Shown here piece by piece: positions 1 to 16,063 of a stretch of DNA of 16,063 nt. The stretch lies in the IMG/VR virus record IMGVR_UViG_2609459830_000022, one strand, 5' to 3'. This DNA is from a virus. Lineage: Duplodnaviria > Heunggongvirae > Uroviricota > Caudoviricetes. How positions within the stretch are numbered: position 1 is the first letter of the stretch; every line of letters starts with the position of its first letter. The notes beneath the pieces are model-generated. The model saw only the letters and a list, made by a program, of their open reading frames with translations. It was not told the DNA's origin and did no database searches. Position numbers and translations under genes: made by a program.

Positions 1-1461
1 ATGAAAAAATTACTGCGTCTTTTTTTCCCGCTCTCACTGCGGGTACGTTTTCTGTTGGCAACGGCTGCGGTAGTACTGGTGCTTTCGCTTGCCTACGGAA
101 TGGTCGCGCTGATCGGTTATAGCGTCAGTTTCGATAAAACTACGTTTCGGCTGTTACGTGGCGAGAGCAATCTGTTCTATACCCTTGCGAAGTGGGAAAA
201 CAATAAGTTGCATGTCGAGTTACCCGAAAATATCGACAAGCAAAGCCCCACCATGACGCTAATTTATGATGAGAACGGGCAGCTTTTATGGGCGCAACGT
301 GACGTGCCCTGGCTGATGAAGATGATCCAGCCTGACTGGCTGAAATCGAATGGTTTTCATGAAATTGAAGCGGATGTTAACGATACCAGCCTCTTGCTGA
401 GTGGAGATCATTCGATACAGCAACAGTTGCAGGAAGTGCGGGAAGATGATGACGACGCGGAGATGACCCACTCGGTGGCAGTAAACGTCTACCCGGCAAC
501 ATCGCGGATGCCAAAATTAACCATTGTGGTGGTGGATACCATTCCGGTGGAGCTAAAAAGTTCCTATATGGTCTGGAGCTGGTTTATCTATGTGCTCTCA
601 GCCAATCTGCTGTTAGTGATCCCGCTGCTGTGGGTCGCCGCCTGGTGGAGTTTACGCCCCATCGAAGCCCTGGCAAAAGAAGTCCGCGAACTGGAAGAAC
701 ATAACCGCGAATTGCTCAATCCAGCCACAACGCGAGAACTGACCAGTCTGGTACGAAACCTGAACCGATTGTTAAAAAGTGAACGCGAACGTTACGACAA
801 ATACCGTACGACGCTCACCGACCTGACCCATAGTCTGAAAACGCCACTGGCGGTGCTGCAAAGTACGCTGCGTTCTCTGCGTAGTGAAAAGATGAGCGTC
901 AGTGATGCTGAGCCGGTAATGCTGGAGCAAATCAGCCGCATTTCACAGCAAATTGGCTACTACCTGCATCGTGCCAGTATGCGCGGCGGGACATTGCTCA
1001 GCCGCGAGCTGCATCCGGTCGCCCCACTGCTGGACAATCTCACCTCAGCGCTGAACAAAGTGTATCAACGCAAAGGGGTCAATATCTCTCTCGATATTTC
1101 GCCAGAGATCAGCTTTGTCGGTGAGCAGAACGATTTTGTCGAGGTGATGGGCAACGTGCTGGATAATGCCTGTAAATATTGCCTCGAGTTTGTCGAAATT
1201 TCTGCAAGGCAAACCGACGAGCATCTCTATATTGTGGTCGAGGATGATGGCCCCGGTATTCCATTAAGCAAGCGAGAGGTCATTTTCGACCGTGGTCAAC
1301 GGGTTGATACTTTACGCCCTGGGCAAGGTGTAGGGCTGGCGGTAGCCCGCGAAATCACCGAGCAATATGAGGGTAAAATCGTCGCCGGAGAGAGCATGCT
1401 GGGCGGTGCGCGGATGGAGGTGATTTTTGGTCGCCAGCATTCTGCGCCGAAAGATGAATAA
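1..1461 (+). CDS. phoQ: Sensor histidine kinase PhoQ (complete, 486 aa)
   Basis: Full-length ORF with ATG at 1 and TAA at 1459-1461. Two N-terminal hydrophobic segments flank a periplasmic domain with the acidic patch EDDDDAE, followed by HAMP, the H-box ([10 protein letters not shown]) and a C-terminal ATPase domain (DDGPGIP, GQGVGL). The sequence is recognised as enterobacterial PhoQ. Confidence 0.97.
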
Positions 1462-4359: not shown

Positions 4360-4399
4360 GCTTATTTTTTCGCCAGATTATTTTTCAAAAAATTCCCGT

Positions 4400-4480
4400 G
4401 CATAAAAATTTGAGGAGGCGTTCGGTTCCCGGCGGGGTCGGGTTTGTCCTGAAAACGCCCCCCACCCCGTCATACAGCCT
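4400..4480. other. Candidate cos / packaging-initiation region between HNH and TerS
   Basis: A 289-bp non-coding gap sits between the HNH stop (4649) and the TerS start (4359). It contains a G/C-rich segment (ccggcggggtcgggtttgtcct ... cgccccccaccccg) flanked by A/T-rich sequence. The HNH-cos-TerS-TerL arrangement is the standard layout in HK97-like cos phages. Confidence 0.4.
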
Positions 4481-4648
4481 CATCAGCGATTGCGGAAACA
4501 TTCCATAACCTCGCGGTCACGGTCGTTTAATCGCGTCGCTGTGATGCGTTCTGCGCGTCCTGATGCTTTATCTTTATGCCCTGTTTCCTGTGCCTTCCAT
4601 GCGTCACGCTGCCTTATCAGTCCACGGATAAGGCGGTTTTGTTCCCGC

Positions 4649-6929: not shown

Positions 6930-7502
6930 TCACACCCCCGCTAAATCCACCCACCAGCGGCGATTATCCGCACGCGGCATTTTTTCGGGGTGCTGCTCAT
7001 ACAGGGAACGGCGGGCCAGCTCCACGCCGGAATCGGGGTAAGCCGGTACCGATGTAACGGTAATTTCGTACAGTTCCGCCACCAGCACGGTGCGCACGCA
7101 TGGATCTGTTGTGGTATCCCATACATCCTTACGGGAGCGAAAGCCAAAGCTCATCCCCGAGATGTCCCCACGCTTAACCAGTTCGATAACGTCGCGCCCT
7201 GTACTGGTATCCGGTGGGGTCAGTTCAAAGCGTAACCCTGTTTCGTCCTCTTCCAGTTTCAGCGTGCCGGAACGGGTGCGCCCCAGTAACATGCTGTGGT
7301 CATGCTCATACAGGCCGCGAACGTCATTACCCGCCGCAAGCCACTCAGTAAACGCCCCCCGCTGGAATTTTTCGTAAAACTCCCCCCATAGCAGTTCTGA
7401 AAGCTTATCCCAGCGAACAACGTAGCCCGTCAGCGTACCGGCTCCGCTGGTAGTGATTTCCGATGACCGGATTTCCATACTCTTCATAATTTTTTCACCC
7501 AT
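6930..7502 (-). CDS. Prohead protease, HK97 family (S78); true start may be ATG 7487
   Basis: HDHSMLLGRT and GDISGMSFGF motifs characteristic of HK97 prohead protease. The first ATG (7502) lacks a Shine-Dalgarno; the second ATG (7487) has GGTGA upstream. Confidence 0.88.
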   Translation of the reverse strand: MGEKIMKSMEIRSSEITTSGAGTLTGYVVRWDKLSELLWGEFYEKFQRGAFTEWLAAGNDVRGLYEHDHSMLLGRTRSGTLKLEEDETGLRFELTPPDTSTGRDVIELVKRGDISGMSFGFRSRKDVWDTTTDPCVRTVLVAELYEITVTSVPAYPDSGVELARRSLYEQHPEKMPRADNRRWWVDLAGV

Positions 7503-7532
7503 AAAACACTAAAGGGGCTTTTAAGCCCCTTC
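7503..7532 (-). terminator. Intrinsic terminator-like hairpin between the major capsid and protease genes
   Basis: Minus-strand RNA reads AAGGGGCUU-AA-AAGCCCCUU (9-bp arms) followed by UAGUGUUUU, immediately after the capsid stop (7542-7544). Confidence 0.5.
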
Positions 7533-7541
7533 TGTATGCTG

Positions 7542-8699
7542 TTAATCGTCGTCCTGTGGCAGTTCCAGAATCTTGATCGCGTTCGAATCCACCACGCCAC
7601 CGCCTAAATATTTCTGCGTGAAAATTTTGATAAAGCCCGGCTCTGTCAGGTTGTCCGGTCTGGTGCGCACGCCCGTTTCATGATCAACGATGTAATAACC
7701 GCGTTTGAAGTCACCCAGGGCGATAACGTTATCCGGCATAAATTCCAGATACTCCACCGGAAGCCCCAGCAACGTATCAGGATCACCCGCCTGTAAACGG
7801 TCGCGCCAGATGTAATCGCCGTTCGCGTTCTTCACCTTCTGAAGTTTTGCCGCCGTCGTGGAGTTAACCACCCAGACCGCGTTTTTGCGGTATTTTTTAC
7901 GTAATGCAAATTTCAGGTCGATCAGCGGGTCCGCAGATGTCCACGCCAGAGATTCGGAAGGTTTAATTACCTGCAACGTACCAAAATCACGCTCTTTGTC
8001 GTTCTTCTCTGCACGGGGTACGGATAAAAAACCTTTTGCTTTTTTGTCACCGTCGCCCACAACCAGATCGCTTTCTTCGGTTTCCGTGAAGGTGTCGCCA
8101 ATCTCACCCGTCAGCCATGAAAGGATGTCCACATCGGAAAAATCCACGATTTCCTGTGTGGTGCGCGGGTACGCATAGACCGGATACAGCTTAATGCTCA
8201 CCTCGTTAATCTGCGGGGTGCTGGTCTGTTCGCGTGCCTTACCCTCTTCACCGTGGTTAACGGTCGCACCGCCAGCGGAAACAAGCTGCTTAAACTCGTT
8301 GCTGCTGATTTTCTTCACGGTACAGATGCGGCGCATGGTGGATTCATCCGTCAGCATTCGCATGATTTCGGTGTTCAGTTCAGGGATAACGGTATAACCA
8401 CCATCAGCGGGAACGCCTGTACTTAATGCGCGGGTTTCACCTGTCAGAATGTAGTTGCGGAGTTCTGCGGGGTCAGTGGTCTGACTGCTTTTACCTGGCT
8501 TGCTGCGCTCTTCGTCTGCAATGGCTTCAAGGCGGGAAATGTCTTTATCGAGGGATTCAGCTTTAGCGCGTAATTCGTCAAATTTTGCGCCCTCAGCATC
8601 GTTAAGACTGCGGTTTTCTTTTTCCGCGTTCTCCAGCATGTCGCGCATCTGATTTTTAATGGCGGTTTTCTGCTGGCGTAATTCGATTATTCTCGGCAT
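7542..8699 (-). CDS. Major capsid protein, HK97 fold, with N-terminal coiled-coil scaffold (delta) domain; 385 aa from ATG 8699
   Basis: N-terminal charged helical region (IIELRQQKTAIKNQMRDMLENAEKENRSLNDAEGAKFDELRAKAESLDKDISRLEAIADEE) followed by a typical HK97-like capsid body. The upstream extension to 8747 in the ORF track starts at GTG and runs through a hairpin, so ATG 8699 is preferred. Confidence 0.9.
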   Translation of the reverse strand: MPRIIELRQQKTAIKNQMRDMLENAEKENRSLNDAEGAKFDELRAKAESLDKDISRLEAIADEERSKPGKSSQTTDPAELRNYILTGETRALSTGVPADGGYTVIPELNTEIMRMLTDESTMRRICTVKKISSNEFKQLVSAGGATVNHGEEGKAREQTSTPQINEVSIKLYPVYAYPRTTQEIVDFSDVDILSWLTGEIGDTFTETEESDLVVGDGDKKAKGFLSVPRAEKNDKERDFGTLQVIKPSESLAWTSADPLIDLKFALRKKYRKNAVWVVNSTTAAKLQKVKNANGDYIWRDRLQAGDPDTLLGLPVEYLEFMPDNVIALGDFKRGYYIVDHETGVRTRPDNLTEPGFIKIFTQKYLGGGVVDSNAIKILELPQDDD

Positions 8700-8736
8700 A
8701 AAAAAAGTCCTGGGATTAAGTAAGGAACTCCAGGAC
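8700..8736 (-). promoter_or_regulatory. Stem-loop plus U7 immediately 5-prime of the capsid start codon; the stem contains the only AGGA Shine-Dalgarno-like motif
   Basis: Minus-strand RNA: GUCCUGG (16-nt loop) CCAGGAC UUUUUUU AUG. Stem arms at 8707-8713 and 8730-8736, T7 at 8700-8706. Confidence 0.5.
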
Positions 8737-8913
8737 GCGGCAAACACTCAACCGTTTTTCATAAGGAAATCAGCAATCGCACCGATCGTTTTCCCGCCTG
8801 GTAATGAATATTGGCGAGAACATTAACAGGCGGAAAAGTGGCCCCAGCGTCCTGGCACCACGGGCGAGAATAATCATGATTCAGTTCGGGTAAAATATGC
8901 CGATCCGCTCAGT

Positions 8914-8940
8914 GAACAACGTGGAACAACCACGAACAAA
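8914..8940. repeat. Phased TTGTT/AACAA repeat cluster, site B (3 units, AACAA on plus strand)
   Basis: gaacaacgtg gaacaaccac gaacaaa. The reverse complement TTGTTCGTGG TTGTTCCACG TTGTTC matches site C (14754..14803) at 24 of 25 positions. It lies about 215 bp upstream of the capsid start. Confidence 0.65.
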
Positions 8941-8950
8941 TAATTTACAA

Positions 8951-8980
8951 AACATGACAAAAAGCCGGATTGCTCCGGCT
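8951..8980 (-). terminator. Rho-independent terminator after the PerC-like gene
   Basis: Minus-strand RNA: AGCCGGA-GCAA-UCCGGCU followed by UUUUUGUCAUGUUUUG, beginning 7 nt after the TAA at 8987-8989. Confidence 0.7.
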
Positions 8981-8986
8981 GTGTGA

Positions 8987-9259
8987 TTATCTGTCCTGGT
9001 AATTTCGCCATATTTCATCACCAGCACCATCCATACCCATTTCGGCATAAGTGCGATCGACCGCCTTTTTCAGGTCTCCGTAATTATCCGGCGGCTCCGG
9101 TGGCCTCTGTGCCTTCCTGGAACATTCCAGCCGTCGCATCGTGATATGATGCCGTTCCTTGTCTGTCTCCACCAGTAGCATGACTTCACCCCATCGCGCC
9201 GCCGCCCTCCGGTAAAAGCCTTTCGCCTCGAGTTCTTCCGCTATGCGGTCATGTACCAT
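8987..9259 (-). CDS. Small regulator, PerC-family-like (90 aa)
   Basis: ATG at 9259 preceded by GAGGGGGGGA Shine-Dalgarno. The motif EAKGFYRRAAARWGEVM resembles the PerC/Pch family of small transcriptional activators; the assignment is from memory of the family motif, not a search. Confidence 0.45.
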   Translation of the reverse strand: MVHDRIAEELEAKGFYRRAAARWGEVMLLVETDKERHHITMRRLECSRKAQRPPEPPDNYGDLKKAVDRTYAEMGMDGAGDEIWRNYQDR

Positions 9260-9269
9260 CGTCCCCCCC

Positions 9270-9680
9270 TCAGAACGGAATATCATCACCGTAAGGGTCA
9301 TCGCCTCCCACTGGTGGCTGATTACCCTGTGTGCCAGTGGTCTTGCGTCGGCTCCCACCAGGACGTGCCGCCCGGGCACTGATTACGCTGTCTGCAATAA
9401 CCTGATAACCCTGCCGCGTTTCCCCGTTCTGTCCGGTCCACTGGCTGACCTGCATGTTACCCGCCACGGTCAGGAGTTCACCCTTGCGGTGCCTTGCCAG
9501 TGCTTCGGCCTGTCTGCCAAATGCCAGGTCGGATAACCACATCGTCGCCGTTCCGTCATCTGCCTGGCTGCACGGAAGGGGGACCGCCATACTCGCCATC
9601 GTCATTTGTGTACCCTTGCTGGTGGTCTTTAACTGCGGGTCAGCCACCAGCCGCCCGTAAGCTGCAATTTGTGCTGTCAT
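9270..9680 (-). CDS. ssb: Single-stranded DNA-binding protein (SSB-like), 136 aa
   Basis: OB-fold-like N-terminal region, Gly/Pro-rich linker and the acidic C-terminal tip DDIPF diagnostic of SSB. GAGGTGG Shine-Dalgarno before ATG 9680. Confidence 0.8.
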   Translation of the reverse strand: MTAQIAAYGRLVADPQLKTTSKGTQMTMASMAVPLPCSQADDGTATMWLSDLAFGRQAEALARHRKGELLTVAGNMQVSQWTGQNGETRQGYQVIADSVISARAARPGGSRRKTTGTQGNQPPVGGDDPYGDDIPF

Positions 9681-9689
9681 ATTGCCACC

Positions 9690-9995
9690 TCAGTGAAGCG
9701 ATCCGGCGTTATTCTTTTTCATCTCTTCCATCATTTTTTCAGTGAGCATTACGCACTGAAAACCCATGTTTTTGATGTCTACGGGCTTCATGCCTTTATC
9801 AGTGGATATCACAGGAAGAATATCCTGATACACATCGCGGTCAGGGTAACTAAGCACACAAAGCGCCCATGATGCCACGGGTGAGGATCCTTCGTCTGTT
9901 TCAACCCACCAGCCTGGTGTAGCTGCGCTTATTTGCAGAATCGTGATCAGTCCGTTGTGCTTGTAAAGTTTTTCACCAAATTTTGGTTCGCTCAT
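9690..9995 (-). CDS. Hypothetical protein (101 aa)
   Basis: ATG at 9995 with GAGAGGTGG Shine-Dalgarno and ATGA overlap with the upstream gene. No recognisable motif. Confidence 0.5.
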   Translation of the reverse strand: MSEPKFGEKLYKHNGLITILQISAATPGWWVETDEGSSPVASWALCVLSYPDRDVYQDILPVISTDKGMKPVDIKNMGFQCVMLTEKMMEEMKKNNAGSLH

Positions 9996-10243
9996 GATTC
10001 CACCTCTCCGGTTTTAACGTTGATGGTTGTTACCTGTTCCGCTTCGGCAATCTCCCGTTCTGTCAGCGTGGCAAAGTTTGCCGCCGCCGTGGTCATGAAT
10101 GCGCTTATCAGGTCGGGATGTTCCTTCGCGTATCCTTCCCGCGTGTGGCGGTCTATCGTTCTGATTGCCACCTTTAAGGTGTGCTCAGTCATGTCTAACG
10201 CTTTATATTTTGGCTCTGTTCTGTCTCTGCGTTTTTGGGTCAT
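9992..10243 (-). CDS. Hypothetical protein (83 aa from ATG 10243; ORF track extends to GTG 10273)
   Basis: ORF immediately downstream of the iteron region. Start choice is uncertain: ATG at 10243 and ATG at 10192 are both possible. Confidence 0.4.
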   Translation of the reverse strand: MTQKRRDRTEPKYKALDMTEHTLKVAIRTIDRHTREGYAKEHPDLISAFMTTAAANFATLTEREIAEAEQVTTINVKTGEVES

Positions 10244-10253
10244 TTCTCGCAAC

Positions 10254-10447
10254 CTCTCACTTTTTCGCCTCACTTTTTCAAGCGTCTCACTTCGTCGCAG
10301 CTGGGATTTTCGGTTTTTCTATGTGTGTGTTTCATAAGTATTTTTTTACCCCTCACTTTTGAGGATGTATACAGGTCGAAAAGTGAGGGAGAGCAGGCTA
10401 ATTTTGGCCCTCTTTCTATCCACCTCGCTTTTGCTCCTCACTTTTAT
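10254..10447. repeat. Iteron cluster, putative replication origin (7 copies of CTCACTTTT, one inverted, flanking an A/T-rich core)
   Basis: Copies at about 10256, 10269, 10286 (imperfect), 10352, 10379 (inverted), 10424 (imperfect) and 10437. The A/T-rich stretch is at 10300-10350. The cluster sits immediately 3-prime of the primase-helicase gene (stop 10444-10446). Confidence 0.7.
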
Positions 10448-11844
10448 AGCGGTGCTACATCATCCCCATCGATACGAATAACCCCATCTTTTTCCAGCTT
10501 GTACAGCCAGCGCCGGAAGTTTTTCATTTCATACCCCAGCTTTTTCATGTCATCACGTAACAGCGGGATCGTGCACTTGTCGCCGTTCTGTGTGCGTGAA
10601 CGGATGCACCCCCATAGCGCGGTATGGTTTTCCGTCTTGTTCCCTGCCTCCTCGATGCGCTCCAGTTCAACAGGAGGGCGCGGATCATCCACCACCACCA
10701 GCGACGTGATTAATTCACCGTCAGCGTCGGTAAAAAGCTCCACCACGCGTAAGTCATATGCGGCTTCTTTGAGTTCCTCCGCGTCCTTCATTTTGGTGCA
10801 TGAGATAACCAGCGCTTCGCTTCCTGCGTCCTCCCTGCGTATCCGGTATTCAGCATCCAGCGAAGCACGAAATGCACTGGAACCGCGCGCGCCTTTCGTC
10901 TCATCCTTGCCGGAATGGTGAACCACCAGCACCGTGGCCCCTGTGCGTCGTTTCAGTTCGTCACAACCACGGATAAACGCCCCCATATCACGGGAATCAT
11001 TTTCATCATTCCCACCAAAGCAACGCGCCAGCGTATCCAGAATAATCATGCGTACAGGTTTACCCGTTTCCCGCTCCACCTGACGGGCAGCGATAACCAT
11101 TTCATCAACATCAAGCGGGGCAGCCGGAAAGATGGGGCGGTTTACCAGATACAGATTTTTCACCTGCTCATCGTGCACAACCTCCCAGGCTTTTACACGA
11201 CGCGGAACACCTATACCGCCTTCACCGACCACATAGAGAACCGCACCATGTGCAACCCTGCGGCCTCCCCACTGGCGACCAGTGGCAACATGGCACGCCC
11301 ACGATCCGGCAAGGAATGATTTATAGGACCCGCTAGCCCCGTATATGCTGCATAGCGATACCGCCGGAATAATCCCCTTAACCACGTAATCCAGTTGCGT
11401 GTCGTATCCGGTAGATCCAACGCTCATCGGTAGCGTGGTTTTTCGCTGGTGGTTTTTTTCTTCCGCCGGCTCTTTCCCACGCACCCGTTCCAGGTATTCG
11501 CGCCAGTTCTCCCGCATATGGCTGTGCATCCCTTCGGGGTAATAATTCGCATCAGTTACACCCGCCGCCGCCAGCTTGTGCGCAATGGCATTAATATTTG
11601 ATGGCCTGATGTGGCCTGCCTTGTACAGCCGGACACAATAGCGCCCCTCGTCGATGATTCTCAGGTCTGCCAGTTCATCCAGTTGATCATCAGCCAGCAC
11701 AACGGGAGGCACATTATCGCCAGCCAGTCGCCCGTCCTGTTCCTGCCACTGTTTCGCATGTGCCCAGGCATCACTACCCGCAAAAATAATGACTTCGGTC
11801 ATCTTGTCGTAAGGCTGTTTTTTTAAGTTCGGTGCGCTTTTCAT
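10444..11844 (-). CDS. Replication initiator: Toprim-like N-domain + RecA-like (RepA/AAA_25-type) ATPase + C-terminal winged-helix; PICI pri-rep-like
   Basis: P-loop-like IYGASGSYKSF, RepA-like segment ILDTLARCFGGNDENDSRDMGAFIRGCDELKRRTGATVLVVHHSGKD, N-terminal VIIFAGSDAWAHA Toprim-like segment. Followed by the iterons. Confidence 0.78.
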   Translation of the reverse strand: MKSAPNLKKQPYDKMTEVIIFAGSDAWAHAKQWQEQDGRLAGDNVPPVVLADDQLDELADLRIIDEGRYCVRLYKAGHIRPSNINAIAHKLAAAGVTDANYYPEGMHSHMRENWREYLERVRGKEPAEEKNHQRKTTLPMSVGSTGYDTQLDYVVKGIIPAVSLCSIYGASGSYKSFLAGSWACHVATGRQWGGRRVAHGAVLYVVGEGGIGVPRRVKAWEVVHDEQVKNLYLVNRPIFPAAPLDVDEMVIAARQVERETGKPVRMIILDTLARCFGGNDENDSRDMGAFIRGCDELKRRTGATVLVVHHSGKDETKGARGSSAFRASLDAEYRIRREDAGSEALVISCTKMKDAEELKEAAYDLRVVELFTDADGELITSLVVVDDPRPPVELERIEEAGNKTENHTALWGCIRSRTQNGDKCTIPLLRDDMKKLGYEMKNFRRWLYKLEKDGVIRIDGDDVAPL

Positions 11845-12980: not shown

Positions 12981-13266
12981 GTGAAAGGCTCCTACAGTAA
13001 TTTTAAGGAGTCTCGCTACTACGCTGTCAAACATGGTGGCGAGACGTAACAGGGTTGACAGACTGGCACTGTAGAGACCAGCGAGCGCAAAGGCTCCCCC
13101 GTTACGCCCCGCCATAATGCGGGTATGGGTAGGTTTACGGACACAAAAAAACCGCATATCGGAATGTAAGCGGCTGTCCGCTACAGTATTCAGGCTGTCA
13201 AACCCGGTCGCCATGTGGGCGACGGGGGAAGCATACAGCCCCGTGATAATTTTTTGCAAGCGGTTT

Positions 13267-13464: not shown

Positions 13465-13537
13465 AACGGCTCCTAGTTTACGTTGTTGGTTAGAAGCCCT
13501 GCGAGTGGTAATGACACTTGCGGGGCTTTGCTTTTTT
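13458..13537 (+). ncRNA. Candidate small cis-antisense RNA overlapping the start and Shine-Dalgarno of Icd-like copy A
   Basis: Plus-strand promoter-like TTGTGT (13423-13428), 17-nt spacer, TATGAT (13446-13451). Plus-strand-specific terminator at 13496-13537. No plus-strand ORF lies in between. Confidence 0.3.
13496..13537 (+). terminator. Rho-independent terminator, plus-strand specific
   Basis: 12-bp stem gccctgcgagtg / cacttgcggggc (two G-U wobbles on the plus RNA, which are C-A and U-C mismatches on the minus RNA), 7-nt loop, then TTTGCTTTTTT. Confidence 0.6.
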
Positions 13538-13553
13538 AAGTGCTCTTGTGTTA

Positions 13554-13600
13554 AGGTGACCACCTAACAATGGAAAGGCTAATTCAATAGGTGACCACTT
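13554..13600. promoter_or_regulatory. Two operator-like palindromes AGGTGACCACCT (13554-13565) and AGGTGACCACTT (13589-13600) in the divergent control region
   Basis: Inverted-repeat arms AGGTG/CACCT with centres 35 bp apart. The second overlaps the Shine-Dalgarno and TTG start of the RHH gene. A TTGACA hexamer on the minus strand (13605-13600) lies between them. Confidence 0.5.
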
Positions 13601-13790
13601 GTCAACAATCAAACGCGATAAAAGCCCTAAAGGGGACGGGCAATCCCCACAATTCAGAATGCGAATTTCTCCAGAGCTAAAAGAGCAATTCGACAAAGAA
13701 GCACAGAGCGACGGCATAAGCCTAGCCAACTGGCTTAAAGAGTTGGGGCGCACTGAACTAAAGCGGCGCGGCATAGAACCCAAAGGATAA
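13599..13790 (+). CDS. Arc/Mnt-like ribbon-helix-helix DNA-binding protein (63 aa, TTG start)
   Basis: SPQFRMRISPELKEQFDKEAQSDGISLANWLKELG matches the beta-strand / helix A / helix B pattern of P22 Arc (PQFNLRWPREVLDLVRKVAEENGRSVNSEIYQRV). Start must be upstream of the PQF strand; TTG at 13599 has AGGTGA 4 nt upstream. Confidence 0.55.
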   Translation: MSTIKRDKSPKGDGQSPQFRMRISPELKEQFDKEAQSDGISLANWLKELGRTELKRRGIEPKG

Positions 13791-13847
13791 AAACTATCAG
13801 CGCCGTGGTGTGAGGTATTACGGCGCATTGCTATGCAGGACAACACA

Positions 13848-14021
13848 ATGACCGATAAAGAATTGACCAAAACATTATCACCGGCACGGAAAAGACGGCG
13901 CAGAAAGATAGAGCATGAATCAGAAAGATTCGCGCCATGTGCTTTTGCCCTTGAGCAATTCCTTAAAGAGTATAGGGAAAAGCGCTCATTGCAGGTATGG
14001 CAACGAACTGAACCAGACTGA
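13848..14021 (+). CDS. Small basic hypothetical protein (57 aa from ATG 13848; ORF track starts at ATG 13833)
   Basis: ORF downstream of the RHH gene in the same plus-strand unit. AGGA 8 nt before ATG 13848. Arg/Lys-rich N-terminal half. No recognised family. Confidence 0.3.
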   Translation: MTDKELTKTLSPARKRRRRKIEHESERFAPCAFALEQFLKEYREKRSLQVWQRTEPD

Positions 14022-14115
14022 TTGCATTGCCCACCAGCCTGATAGCGGCTATCATCCCCGTGCTTATGTTTGGGATCACATACACATAAGGCGCAGCGGG
14101 TTATCTGTTCAGAAA

Positions 14116-14144
14116 GGCGGCTCCATTTCGGGGCCGCTTTTTTT
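14116..14144 (+). terminator. Rho-independent terminator closing the plus-strand RHH unit
   Basis: ggcggctcc-atttc-ggggccgc followed by T7. The stem has one G-U wobble on the plus RNA that is a mismatch on the minus RNA. Confidence 0.7.
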
Positions 14145-14290
14145 ATGCCTGAAAAACCCCAATTTTGTGGTTTTCCAGTCTCACCAGGGCGAACGAATCC
14201 CCGCCCACGTTCTGGCGTATATTCAATCTTCATGGTTATAGCTCTGTGTTCAGATGATTGATGTGTGGCGGCTGCGTGCCGCCAGCGTGA

Positions 14291-14845: not shown

Positions 14846-16063
14846 TTATTTTCTTCTGGCTACTGGTAGCGTGGTTACGTTTTCATGTGTTCCCGCCAGT
14901 ATCCCTAACCGCTCCGTCCACATATCCAGCGCATTGCGTTTAGCATCCAGATAACGGGAATGATTATAAACTCGCTGCATTCCTGGCATCTGGTGGCCTG
15001 TAAGCTGCTCCACGACATGCGGATCAACGCCTAAATCGTTCAGCATGGTTGTAAAGGTGCGCCGGATGTCATGCAGTGACCAGTGAGGATGATTAAGCCT
15101 CCTGTGCGCTAATCTTCCATACTGCGATACGCTGGCCTCCTGTTTCACTTCCCCCAGCAATAAGCCCGTGTGCCTGTTCTGCTCCACCAGCTGCGTGACG
15201 AACGGCAGGATCGCTTCCGGTATGGGCCGGAATATTGCGACCTTCGTTTTGCTGTGCTCCTTCGGAACGGTCCATAGCATTTCCGTAAAATCCCACTCCC
15301 CGATCTCCGATAACCTCAGTTCTACCGTTCTGGCTCCGAAGACAATCAGGAGGCGGATTAACGCGACGTAGTAAGGGGAGAATATTTTTTTGTCCAGTGC
15401 CTGCAATAATTCGCCAAGTTCTTTGTTACTTAAGACACGTTCGCTTATATCCGGTTTTTTCCCAACGTCCGCCACGTTCAGATCGTCCAGAACGTTGCTG
15501 ATTGCATAGCGCCGCCTACGGCAGAACTTAAGCGCCTGTTTGCACGCCTGTAGCACGAATCCGGCAGTAACAGGCGTTCGCTTTGCCACCTGGTCAAAAC
15601 AGGCCAGCCAGTGCCGTAGCTCGCATTTATCCAGCGGCATAGCACCAATCTGCTGTATTACGTGATTATTAAGTCGCCTTTTCAGGGCGATATAATCCAC
15701 GCGGTTTTCCTTTACGTAATACTCAAGCCAGTAGGTGAGCGCATCGCCAACCGTTACCGGCTTTAACGCTTCCTGTACGGTGTAATTAAGCTCATGACGT
15801 GGATTTTTCCCCTCTGCCAGCCATGCGCGACACTGGGCGGCTTTTTCCCTGGCTGATTTCAGGCTCAGATCAGGATAACTTCCCAGCTTAATGCGTTCGG
15901 GTCGTGTCTCCCTTCCCGTTCCGGCCCTGTATGTGAAATACCAGGTCAATTTCCCTGATGTTAAATATTTCACGCTCAGGTTTCCGCCATCACTATAAAA
16001 CGTGTTTTTCTCCGCTGGCTTACCATGAAGTTTCCTTAGCAAGGTATCGCTCAGTTTGTTCAT
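14846..16063 (-). CDS. int: Tyrosine recombinase / integrase, P4-type with N-terminal arm-DNA-binding domain (405 aa)
   Basis: N-terminal FYSDGGNLSVKY ... WYFTYR arm-binding-type domain. Catalytic region with GARTVELR, HDIRRTF and the HSRY tyrosine. ATG is the last 3 nt of the window (16061-16063). Confidence 0.93.
   Translation of the reverse strand: MNKLSDTLLRKLHGKPAEKNTFYSDGGNLSVKYLTSGKLTWYFTYRAGTGRETRPERIKLGSYPDLSLKSAREKAAQCRAWLAEGKNPRHELNYTVQEALKPVTVGDALTYWLEYYVKENRVDYIALKRRLNNHVIQQIGAMPLDKCELRHWLACFDQVAKRTPVTAGFVLQACKQALKFCRRRRYAISNVLDDLNVADVGKKPDISERVLSNKELGELLQALDKKIFSPYYVALIRLLIVFGARTVELRLSEIGEWDFTEMLWTVPKEHSKTKVAIFRPIPEAILPFVTQLVEQNRHTGLLLGEVKQEASVSQYGRLAHRRLNHPHWSLHDIRRTFTTMLNDLGVDPHVVEQLTGHQMPGMQRVYNHSRYLDAKRNALDMWTERLGILAGTHENVTTLPVARRK

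Follow-up and report, generated by a model that had tools for sequence, protein, structure and literature searches.

A conserved structured leader at the capsid gene of a cf-PICI and a possible two-state gate over its ribosome site

How is capsid expression set in a satellite whose capsid gene is preceded, with no gap, by a hairpin and a run of seven U? The whole stretch of DNA analysed here (the window, 16,063 nucleotides) carries on its minus strand the sequence 5'-GCG GUCCUGG AGUUCCUUACUUAAUC CCAGGAC UUUUUUU AUG CCG-3', in which the AUG opens the major capsid gene. The initial annotation of this locus, made from the sequence alone, had described a 7-bp stem with a 16-nt loop followed by U7 and the AUG, a geometry that we found to be exact on the minus strand, coordinates included. 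It had read the arrangement as an attenuator or translational gate that keeps capsid production off until a factor acts, for example a late factor of a helper phage. Here, we place the hairpin in the 5' end of its operon, compare it with its counterparts in related islands, and weigh the mechanisms through which it may act.

The island and the 5' end of its packaging operon

Judged by its gene content, the window is a capsid-forming PICI (cf-PICI) of the EcCIEDL933 type. It encodes int, alpA, a replication gene and a full HK97-type capsid/packaging module, and no tail or lysis genes were found among its ORFs; this combination (int, alpA, a primase-type replication gene, capsid-protease-portal-connector and hnh-terS-terL, without tail genes) is the published definition of the EcCIEDL933 family of cf-PICIs. 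The island adjoins phoQ, and its genes are all encoded on the minus strand (Table 1). Its proteins matched the Pfam families Phage_AlpA, AAA_25, Phage_capsid, Peptidase_S78, Phage_portal, Phage_HCP, Phage_connect_1, HNH, Terminase_4 and TerL. Downstream of the capsid gene, the HK97-type module continues with genes for the prohead protease, portal, head completion and connector proteins, HNH, TerS and TerL. DNA 95–99% identical to positions 8600..9100 is carried by 757 of 5426 complete E. coli genomes. The ATG at 8699 is supported as the true capsid start by sequence comparison: the RefSeq start is identical in a 99%-identical genome, and the N-terminus M-[KP]-[KR]-[LI]-[LI]-E-L-R-Q-Q-K is common to all relatives at 68–74% identity. 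The terminator-like hairpin that separates the capsid and protease genes may act as a second attenuation point within the packaging operon.

Table 1. Coordinates of the island features discussed in the text (positions in the window)
Feature	Coordinates	Strand	Basis or remark
phoQ, adjoining the island	1..1461	+	
Terminator-like hairpin between capsid and protease genes, 9-bp stem, weak U tail	7511..7532	-	Terminator scan
Major capsid protein (HK97 fold), packaging operon gene 1	7542..8699	-	Pfam Phage_capsid, E 1.8e-61
Capsid AUG	8699..8697	-	
U7 tract between SL3 and AUG	8700..8706	-	Directly 3' of stem
SL3 hairpin (final leader stem-loop), including the preceding GC at 8738..8737	8707..8738	-	Sequence, folding, conservation
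SL3 3' arm CCAGGAC	8713..8707	-	
AGGA within the SL3 3' arm	8711..8708	-	
SL3 loop, 16 nt	8729..8714	-	
SL3 5' arm GUCCUGG	8736..8730	-	
UCCU within the SL3 5' arm	8735..8732	-	Pairs with AGGA
GCGUCCUGG, complement of the anti-SL3 element	8738..8730	-	
SL2, long variable hairpin, UUUUCCGCCUG ... CAGGCGGGAAA	8790..8837	-	Covariation of basal stem
SL1, predicted 5'-terminal mRNA hairpin, GUGG-ug-CCAG-GACG-CUGG-gg-CCAC	8838..8861	-	RNAalifold, pair counts
Anti-SL3 element CCAGGACGC inside SL1	8847..8855	-	Copy of the SL3 3' arm + 2 nt
Predicted -10 TATTCT, 16 nt after -35	8867..8872	-	Conservation in 103 leaders
Predicted -35 TTTACC	8889..8894	-	Conservation in 103 leaders
Four direct repeats TTGT(A/T)(A/C)	starts 8950, 8939, 8929, 8919	-	Spacing 10–11 bp
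Upstream motif TTTTGTAAATTATTTGT	8952..8936	-	Single occurrence in window
Intrinsic terminator after perC-family cargo gene, AGCCGGAGCAATCCGGCT + TTTTTG	8963..8980	-	Terminator scan
PerC-family protein (cargo)	8987..9259 (annotated 9259..8987)	-	
SSB	9680..9270	-	
AAA_25 primase-type replication protein	11844..10444	-	Pfam
Phage_AlpA protein, 62 aa	14479..14291	-	Pfam
Integrase	16063..14846	-	Identified from reading of the ORF only

We gathered capsid-upstream DNA from 212 related loci in genomes, viral contigs and metagenomes, some of them present in duplicate. Different cargo genes meet the conserved packaging module at the strong intrinsic terminator that follows the perC-family gene: in E. 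coli genomes without perC, the query match begins only at window position 8982, and the terminator is kept in relatives despite the other sequence that lies upstream of it. This terminator would insulate the capsid leader from transcription coming from upstream. On its downstream side lie a motif and four direct repeats that together occupy 8914..8952, about -89 to -58 from the predicted transcript start. The motif stands at a fixed distance of 100–102 nt from SL1, the first stem-loop of the leader, in the two lineages termed A and B below, and the intervening DNA differs between them; we regard the array as a candidate activator site.

The promoter was called from position-specific conservation in 103 distinct leaders, with the opening base of SL1 as the common alignment point. 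In the -35 region, the three T at -33..-31 hardly vary, if at all, and 89 of the 103 leaders have C at -29; in the -10 region, T(-11), A(-10) and T(-6) occur in every leader and T(-9) in 99. The spacing of the two conserved blocks is exactly 16 nt. TAnnnT is the signature of a sigma-70 -10 element, and the promoter ends 5 nt before SL1, so that the -10 position predicts a transcript start at ~8861, the first base of SL1. A consensus promoter scan of 7500-10500 found nothing, and TATTTT at 8897..8892, once considered as a -10, was dropped because this stretch aligns with the conserved -35. We infer that the island's own conserved sigma-70-type promoter drives the capsid operon. Together, this promoter and the upstream terminator would place the hairpin ~125 nt inside the 5' UTR of the operon, a location in which we have fairly high confidence. 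The initial annotation had made its reading depend on a transcript that starts upstream of the hairpin, which is where the predicted start lies. The published descriptions of EcCIEDL933-family cf-PICIs consulted here, 10.1101/2025.02.11.637232 among them, never mention a promoter or terminator of the packaging operon, and the capsid leader itself appears to be undescribed so far.

The hairpin at the capsid start and its counterparts in related islands

Comparison of more than 200 relatives delineated a leader of ~162 nt with three stem-loops (SL1, SL2 and SL3), of which SL3 is the hairpin at the capsid start. Its 3' arm contains AGGA, 8 nt before the AUG and paired with UCCU of the 5' arm; this is the only Shine-Dalgarno-like (SD-like) motif in the last 20 nt before the capsid AUG, and the initial annotation too had called it the only one. 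RNAfold predicted the 7-bp stem together with a weak 3-bp inner GUU/AAU stem at -12.4 kcal/mol (centroid). The folding energy of SL3 alone is ordinary (z = -1.3; equalled or bettered by 19 of 200 shuffles). What stands out is the stem and T run in combination: a search of both strands for a perfect stem of 7 bp or more, with a loop of up to 20 and a run of 7 or more T beginning within 1 nt of it, gave a single occurrence in the window, compared with 0.017 per dinucleotide shuffle. The consensus terminator scan missed SL3 only because its loop limit is 8. As in an intrinsic terminator, the stem consists of a perfect 7 bp with 5 G-C pairs on the transcribed strand, and U7 begins right after it; the loop measures 16 nt vs 3–8 nt in typical terminators, and comes down to 8 nt only if the weak inner stem is counted, the 3' side of which is AAU in the window and AAC in most relatives. 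As in an SD-sequestering stem, AGGA is paired in the predicted fold of the full leader, where P(SL3) is 0.99.

Within lineage A, to which the window belongs, we surveyed 72 locus records, some contigs being present twice. The 5' arm GUCCUGG is invariant in all 72, and the 3' arm reads CCAGGAC in 62, UCAGGAC (which retains a G-U pair) in 7, and is damaged in 3. The T run has a length of 7 in 58 records and 8 in 14, and is never shorter. L059, a diverged member of this lineage with 69% capsid identity, has a 9-bp stem, GUCCUGGUG/CAUCAGGAC, followed by U8, with loop and flanks unrelated to those of the window. Taken together, we have high confidence that the structure of SL3 followed by U7 is real and conserved.

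Beyond lineage A, lineages B and C also have a hairpin just ahead of the capsid start that takes in the ribosome-site GGA, with stem sequences unrelated among the three. In lineage A (the window and L059), the stem is GUCCUGG ... CCAGGAC, followed by U7-U8 before the start codon; in lineage B, the most numerous, it is UGGUUUC-a-CGU ... ACG-GAAACCA, followed by 2-5 mixed bases; and in lineage C, it is CUGCAUG ... CAUGCAG(GAG), followed by about 7-9 mixed bases. The GGA lies at about -12..-9, inside the SL3 3' arm, in both A and B. A U run before the capsid start is absent in lineages B and C, and U7-U8 is confined to the EcCIEDL933-type lineage and L059. As most relatives thus have the hairpin without the U run, termination appears to be a lineage-specific addition rather than the core function; the feature common to A, B and C is the stem over the ribosome site, to which lineage A has added the terminator shape. 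Of the two roles first proposed for the hairpin, that of a gate gains from the GGA hairpin in three lineages and from the alternative pairing described below, and that of an attenuator would hold for one lineage only.

The pattern of substitution bears on the strand under selection. In lineage B, 7 of the 10 SL3 pairs are altered on one side only, and nearly all such changes produce G-U pairs; one-sided changes of this G-U-compatible kind point to selection on the RNA strand and are not expected for a DNA palindrome. No two-sided (compensatory) changes were found within the 7-bp stem of lineage A or within SL3 of lineage B, and the MAFFT alignment places lineage A out of register with lineage B at SL3. 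A stem that may lock in the start codon is also predicted for lineages D and E, which are AT-rich, but its partner TTTTTCAT may be promoter DNA and not RNA, and these lineages were therefore not counted as support. On the strength of the comparisons and folding models, we consider with fairly high confidence that SL3 would occlude the capsid ribosome site in vivo, and with moderate confidence that SL3 with U7 would terminate transcription measurably.

The upstream stem-loops and a predicted alternative pairing of SL1 with SL3

The covariation within SL1 and SL2 indicates that both are genuine RNA structures. SL1, with the loop GACG, comprises 9 pairs, of which 5 show compensatory changes, with 99% of cells paired; it is near-invariant across lineage B, whose capsid proteins are only 64-75% identical to that of the window. 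Among 33 representatives, the basal stem of SL2 retains 10 pairs with 90% of cells paired, and compensatory changes are seen in 9 of the 10; outside this stem their SL2 sequences are unrelated, and SL2 varies widely in sequence, length and branching. The covariation score of SL1, SL2 and SL3 together was reached by none of 500 shuffles, and sliding the pairing partners by 1-3 columns lowered the paired cells from 94% to ~40%.

Searches against known RNAs and phages returned no counterpart of the leader. It was left unmatched by the Rfam 15 covariance models at gathering and permissive thresholds, the best scores in 8600..9100 being 11.6-17.2 bits, well short of the gathering scores, and a blastn search in distant mode found no match to it in 50,697 INPHARED phage records. 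The sole Rfam matches in the window were C4 and c4-a1b1 at 13032..13236. Three candidate control elements were set aside. A leader peptide of the trp type was rejected because the 35-codon ORF from the ATG at 8877 loses its frame or its ATG in two relatives (L047 and L053), and because this ATG lies between the predicted -35 and -10. The island's own C4 antisense RNA, considered as a regulator of the leader, formed a duplex with it only ~2.3 sd better than mononucleotide shuffles, by a method unsuited to long partners. CsrA-type GGA-loop sites were rejected by inspection, since SL1 of lineage B lacks GGA. Comparison of neighbouring genes yielded no candidate for an RNA-binding partner, the upstream genes being variable cargo or encoding proteins without assigned function.

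Within SL1, the anti-SL3 element CCAGGACGC is a perfect 9-nt complement of GCGUCCUGG, a segment that takes in the SL3 5' arm together with the GC just 5' of it. In lineage A, this 9-nt SL1:SL3 complement was equalled by none of 1000 shuffles of the upstream leader. Lineage B has a counterpart pair, AGACGUGA / UCACGUCU, likewise centred on the GACG loop, and in one of its sub-lineages three positions have changed jointly: A to C in the SL1 5' strand, U to G in the SL1 3' strand and A to C on the 5' side of SL3. The three positions read A/U/A in 114 distinct leaders and C/G/C in 14, with no mixed combination; this concordance (128/128) is the pattern expected for one strand with two alternative partners. 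The number of independent events behind the covariation of the alternative helix is small, about three lineages. When the first 30 nt of the leader were paired with its last 45 nt, the duplex was more stable than in shuffled controls in 8 of 9 lineage representatives, three lineage-C leaders included, with 1-38 of 500 shuffles as good; L192 is not significant, and single-lineage tests in B give p of only about 0.03-0.08.

Predicted folds of the nascent transcript assign the two pairings to successive stages of synthesis. For the window, the probability of the alternative helix is 0.79-0.97 when the SL3 5' arm has been made and the 3' arm is pending; once the 3' arm is made it is about 0, and that of SL1 with SL3 is about 0.99. 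The same flip is predicted in two further leaders (L002 and L134), and in L059 the open form, with SL1 paired to SL3, is still favoured at full length. At equilibrium, the closed form of the window leader is favoured by 9 kcal/mol (-60.9 for closed vs -51.8 kcal/mol for open) and that of L002 by 4 kcal/mol; a difference of 9 kcal/mol implies that opening would need kinetics or a factor. In our judgement, the arguments for and against a functional alternative helix are about evenly balanced.

A possible two-state gate and the alternatives to it

Our working model, to which we accord an even chance of being correct, is that the leader has two states, one of which closes the capsid ribosome site and, in lineage A, also attenuates transcription. 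The island's own sigma-70-type promoter would start the RNA, with SL1 forming its 5' end. In the closed state, SL1, SL2 and SL3 would all form, and the anti-SD UCCU would pair with AGGA and shut the ribosome site. In lineage A, the SL3 stem with U7-U8 would in addition stop a fraction of polymerases just before the AUG, given that partial termination is expected in the EcCIEDL933 lineage from the U7-U8 after SL3; SL3 would thereby serve as a dual gate, both attenuator and SD sequestor. In the open state, the SL1 element CCAGGACGC would hold the SL3 5' arm such that the terminator stem cannot form, and AGGAC-U7-AUG would be single-stranded and provide a good ribosome site. Which of the two folds forms would probably be settled while the RNA is being transcribed, or else by a factor that acts on the strongly conserved SL1 through binding or destabilisation; such a factor would be encoded by the island or the host and would not come from a helper phage. 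This functional account of the leader draws throughout on sequence, comparison and energy models, and a strong capsid gate seems at odds with the spontaneous capsid production that has been reported.

The mechanism envisaged, an attenuator and sequestor with alternative pairing, is of a well-known kind. As in trp- and pyrBI-type attenuators and riboswitch platforms, there would be two exclusive folds, with an upstream copy of the 3' arm competing in the capsid leader; and as in riboswitch classes, related capsid leaders appear to use either a terminator (A) or SD sequestration alone (B and C). Unlike those systems, the capsid leader has neither a conserved leader peptide nor an Rfam match, and its anti-terminator strand lies inside a stable 5'-terminal hairpin. 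The PR'-6S RNA-tR' region of lambda, which is read through under the action of Q, likewise places a promoter, a short leader (194 nt in lambda, ~162 nt here) and an intrinsic terminator before the morphogenesis genes. The capsid leader departs from it in having no -10-like early pause element and no detected Q homologue, and in a terminator that abuts the start codon and contains the SD; most relatives have no terminator. A start region locked in a stem, as in the capsid leader, is also known from Mu mom/Com, lambda cIII and the MS2 maturation gene, which are expressed via an alternative fold, a stem-opening protein or a time window before equilibrium; unlike in Mu mom, the island proteins scanned include no Com-like zinc finger, and none of these systems is related to the leader in sequence. 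With HK022 put, the leader shares an operon RNA that opens with two neighbouring stem-loops and has terminators downstream, a resemblance that is topological only: in contrast to putL/putR, it shows no similarity to the PL-proximal region, its SL2 is hypervariable, and it is kept in relatives without terminators.

A simpler explanation would dispense with the switch. Here, a constitutively leaky terminator and a weakly inhibitory hairpin would form a passive attenuator or insulator that damps basal expression of the packaging operon; after promoter activation, polymerases that read through and ribosomes assisted by S1 on the U tract would suffice, and SL1 would be a 5' stabiliser only, its complementarity to SL3 incidental. 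The far greater stability of the closed form at equilibrium (-60.9 vs -51.8 kcal/mol) suits this explanation, as do the absence of compensatory changes within the SL3 stem in A or B, the fact that no trigger was found, the second leaky terminator, located past the capsid gene and suggestive of an attenuation that is graded along the operon, and the reported spontaneous production of capsids (10.1101/2025.02.11.637232). We nevertheless consider it rather unlikely, because SL1:SL3 complementarity recurs in unrelated sequences and covaries (all 128 distinct leaders being concordant) and because nascent-transcript folds favour the alternative helix. In addition, the capsid protein is the most abundant structural protein, and an SD-sequestering stem of -12 kcal/mol, which lowers translation by orders of magnitude, would cut its synthesis. 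Processive antitermination would retain an active response but shift it to the polymerase, which a Q-/N-like protein, or SL1-SL2 RNA in the manner of HK022 put, would make resistant to the terminator at U7 as well as to the one that follows the capsid gene. This is improbable in our view: most relatives keep the leader without any terminator, there is no TAnnnT pause element in +1..+30 of the window transcript, SL2 varies in sequence, length and branching, unlike a polymerase-binding RNA, the HK022 putL region has no visible sequence resemblance to the leader, and no Q-/N-like domain was found in the island proteins scanned, a set that takes in some but not all of the small ORFs. What recalls such systems is the order of promoter, ~162-nt leader and terminator ahead of late-type genes, the pair of adjacent 5'-terminal stem-loops as in putL, and the further terminator inside the operon. 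The island's AlpA was separately considered as a Q-like antiterminator and rejected as a coincidence of names: it is a protein of only 62 aa in the Phage_AlpA family, vs the larger, Q-like AlpA of P. aeruginosa, whose residues are numbered to at least 142.

Two further explanations would place the function of the sequence outside the capsid mRNA leader. If GTCCTGG-N16-CCAGGAC and the third heptamer copy, in SL1, were operators for a dimeric DNA-binding regulator, the RNA hairpin would be irrelevant; the heptamer CCAGGAC/GTCCTGG does occur 7 times in the window vs 1.4 expected, with 4 copies within 8700-9000, and L059 keeps the half-sites while the spacer differs. We regard this as very improbable, as one of the four local copies sits in variable cargo, arm changes on one side only (UCAGGAC in A and several in B) still allow G-U pairs in the transcribed strand, the U tract is conserved, and the hairpins of other lineages at the same position have unrelated arms, always over the ribosome site. 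It is just as hard to uphold a trans-acting small RNA of ~160 nt (SL1-SL2-SL3-U7), with capsid made from read-through or from another start: lineages B and C have the leader but no terminator, and no conserved single-stranded seed was noticed besides the leader-internal pairing element, even though the promoter is conserved and Hfq-binding small RNAs usually end in a terminator hairpin with 7 or more U. The proposal made at the outset, that a late factor of a helper phage opens the gate, thereby limiting capsid synthesis to times when tails are present, has a precedent in another satellite family, the SaPIs, whose packaging genes respond to helper late activators, and the repeat array 8914..8952 could bind a foreign activator. 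It is, however, largely refuted and retains hardly any probability. Known cf-PICI biology contradicts its rationale: cf-PICIs, EcCIEDL933 included, are reported to form tail-less, DNA-filled capsids at a high level even when no helper phage has been induced, helper-free capsid production by the related island KpCIDSM30104 was tested directly in a non-lysogenic strain, and the reproduction of EcCIEDL933 was driven by alpA overexpression (10.1101/2025.02.11.637232). As capsid synthesis goes ahead with no helper phage induced, it does not require a helper late factor; the lack of any match to the leader in the phage records searched likewise speaks against it.

Returning to the two-state leader, a broader and more tentative possibility, which we think somewhat doubtful, is that it is a cis-regulatory RNA switch of a new class, restricted to capsid-forming satellites, with the invariant SL1 and its GACG loop as the sensor. 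If this were true, SL1 would sense a trans-acting protein, an RNA or a small molecule, and the signal would set the capsid number of the island; the lineages would have wired the same SL1 sensor either to a terminator or to ribosome-site occlusion alone, and the 'spontaneous' appearance of tail-less capsids could be controlled at this leader.

cf-PICIs are recently recognised and widespread satellites whose cross-species spread relies on DNA-filled tail-less capsids, and the switch-on of the packaging operon is not addressed in the published descriptions of the EcCIEDL933 family consulted here. The present analysis contributes a predicted promoter at base coordinates, a candidate activator repeat array, a structured leader of ~162 nt and a putative two-state gate at the capsid start. 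Were the leader merely a passive attenuator, the result would be an ordinary one, yet the 5' end of the operon would still be defined. If the gate is real, it would explain how the basal capsid level is set, and it would offer a handle to tune or silence capsid output, useful for engineered PICI-based delivery particles.

Elements in and around the leader in lineage B and the window

Around the leader, lineage B, which comprises the most numerous relatives and lacks the U run that follows SL3 in the window, shows two further features. Approximately 40-60 nt upstream of SL1, the 5'-terminal stem-loop of the capsid mRNA leader, a terminator-like hairpin (e.g. CCCCTGTCTCTGACGGGGG) was found in L002, L003, L004 and L055 as well as in many lineage-B loci; its stem varies among the relatives while pairing is retained, and its T tail (TTTTCTTT) overlies the predicted -35 element of the capsid promoter. 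The short linker between SL2 and SL3 (e.g. CCTCCCCTCCAAGCG in L002) is pyrimidine-rich, G-poor and conserved in lineage B, and is absent from the window's lineage. This linker could be a Rho loading site in place of an intrinsic terminator, or an anti-SD-like tract.

In the fold of the window's full-length leader, UAUGAAAAA (8761..8752, minus strand) pairs with the U tract and start codon (8706..8697), lengthening SL3, the stem-loop abutting the capsid AUG. We gave this pairing no weight because comparison with L059, a diverged member of the window's lineage, showed that the A tract is not retained there.

Accessory features elsewhere in the island

The remaining features are collected in the table. 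The Rfam matches place a P1/P7-type immunity RNA system inside this cf-PICI, in the interval that separates alpA from the replication genes. Most of the interval from alpA to the C4 RNA may carry no coding sequence; the long ORF listed there has an implausible composition, and nothing points to a gene. In HK97-type phages, cos is located between HNH and terS; one published cf-PICI description does not state its position.

Additional features of the window
Feature	Position	Strand	Basis or context
Long ORF	13490..14233	-	ORF listing
Terminator-like hairpin, 15 bp	13493..13529	+	Terminator scan
C4 a1/b1 target sites	13187..13236	-	Rfam match 46.8 bits, gathering 46.7
C4 antisense RNA	13032..13119	-	Rfam match 69.1 bits, gathering 45
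PerC-family transcriptional activator gene, carried as cargo	8963..9259	-	Directly upstream of capsid leader
Four direct repeats TTGT(A/T)(A/C), spacing 10-11 bp, plus motif TTTTGTAAATTATTTGT	8914..8952	-
Hairpin, GC-rich 9-bp stem, weak U tail	7511..7532	-	Between capsid stop and protease start; terminator scan
Terminator-like hairpin	4608..4637	+	Terminator scan
Non-coding gap, ~290 nt	4360..4648		Between HNH and terS

Cargo junction, promoter-proximal repeats and the capsid-protease hairpin

In O157 and other genomes, similarity to the window ends at the terminator (8980), and different cargo is therefore inserted at one and the same junction. Between this terminator and the capsid promoter, TTTTGTAAATTATTTGT and the associated repeats lie at a fixed distance from the promoter. 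Because TTACC-type repeats occupy the position of the TTGT(A/T)(A/C) array in other relatives, the comparison suggests that these arrays are activator sites of differing specificities. Within the packaging operon itself, the hairpin separating the capsid and protease genes is likely a second attenuation point, which would set how much capsid is made relative to the proteins encoded downstream.
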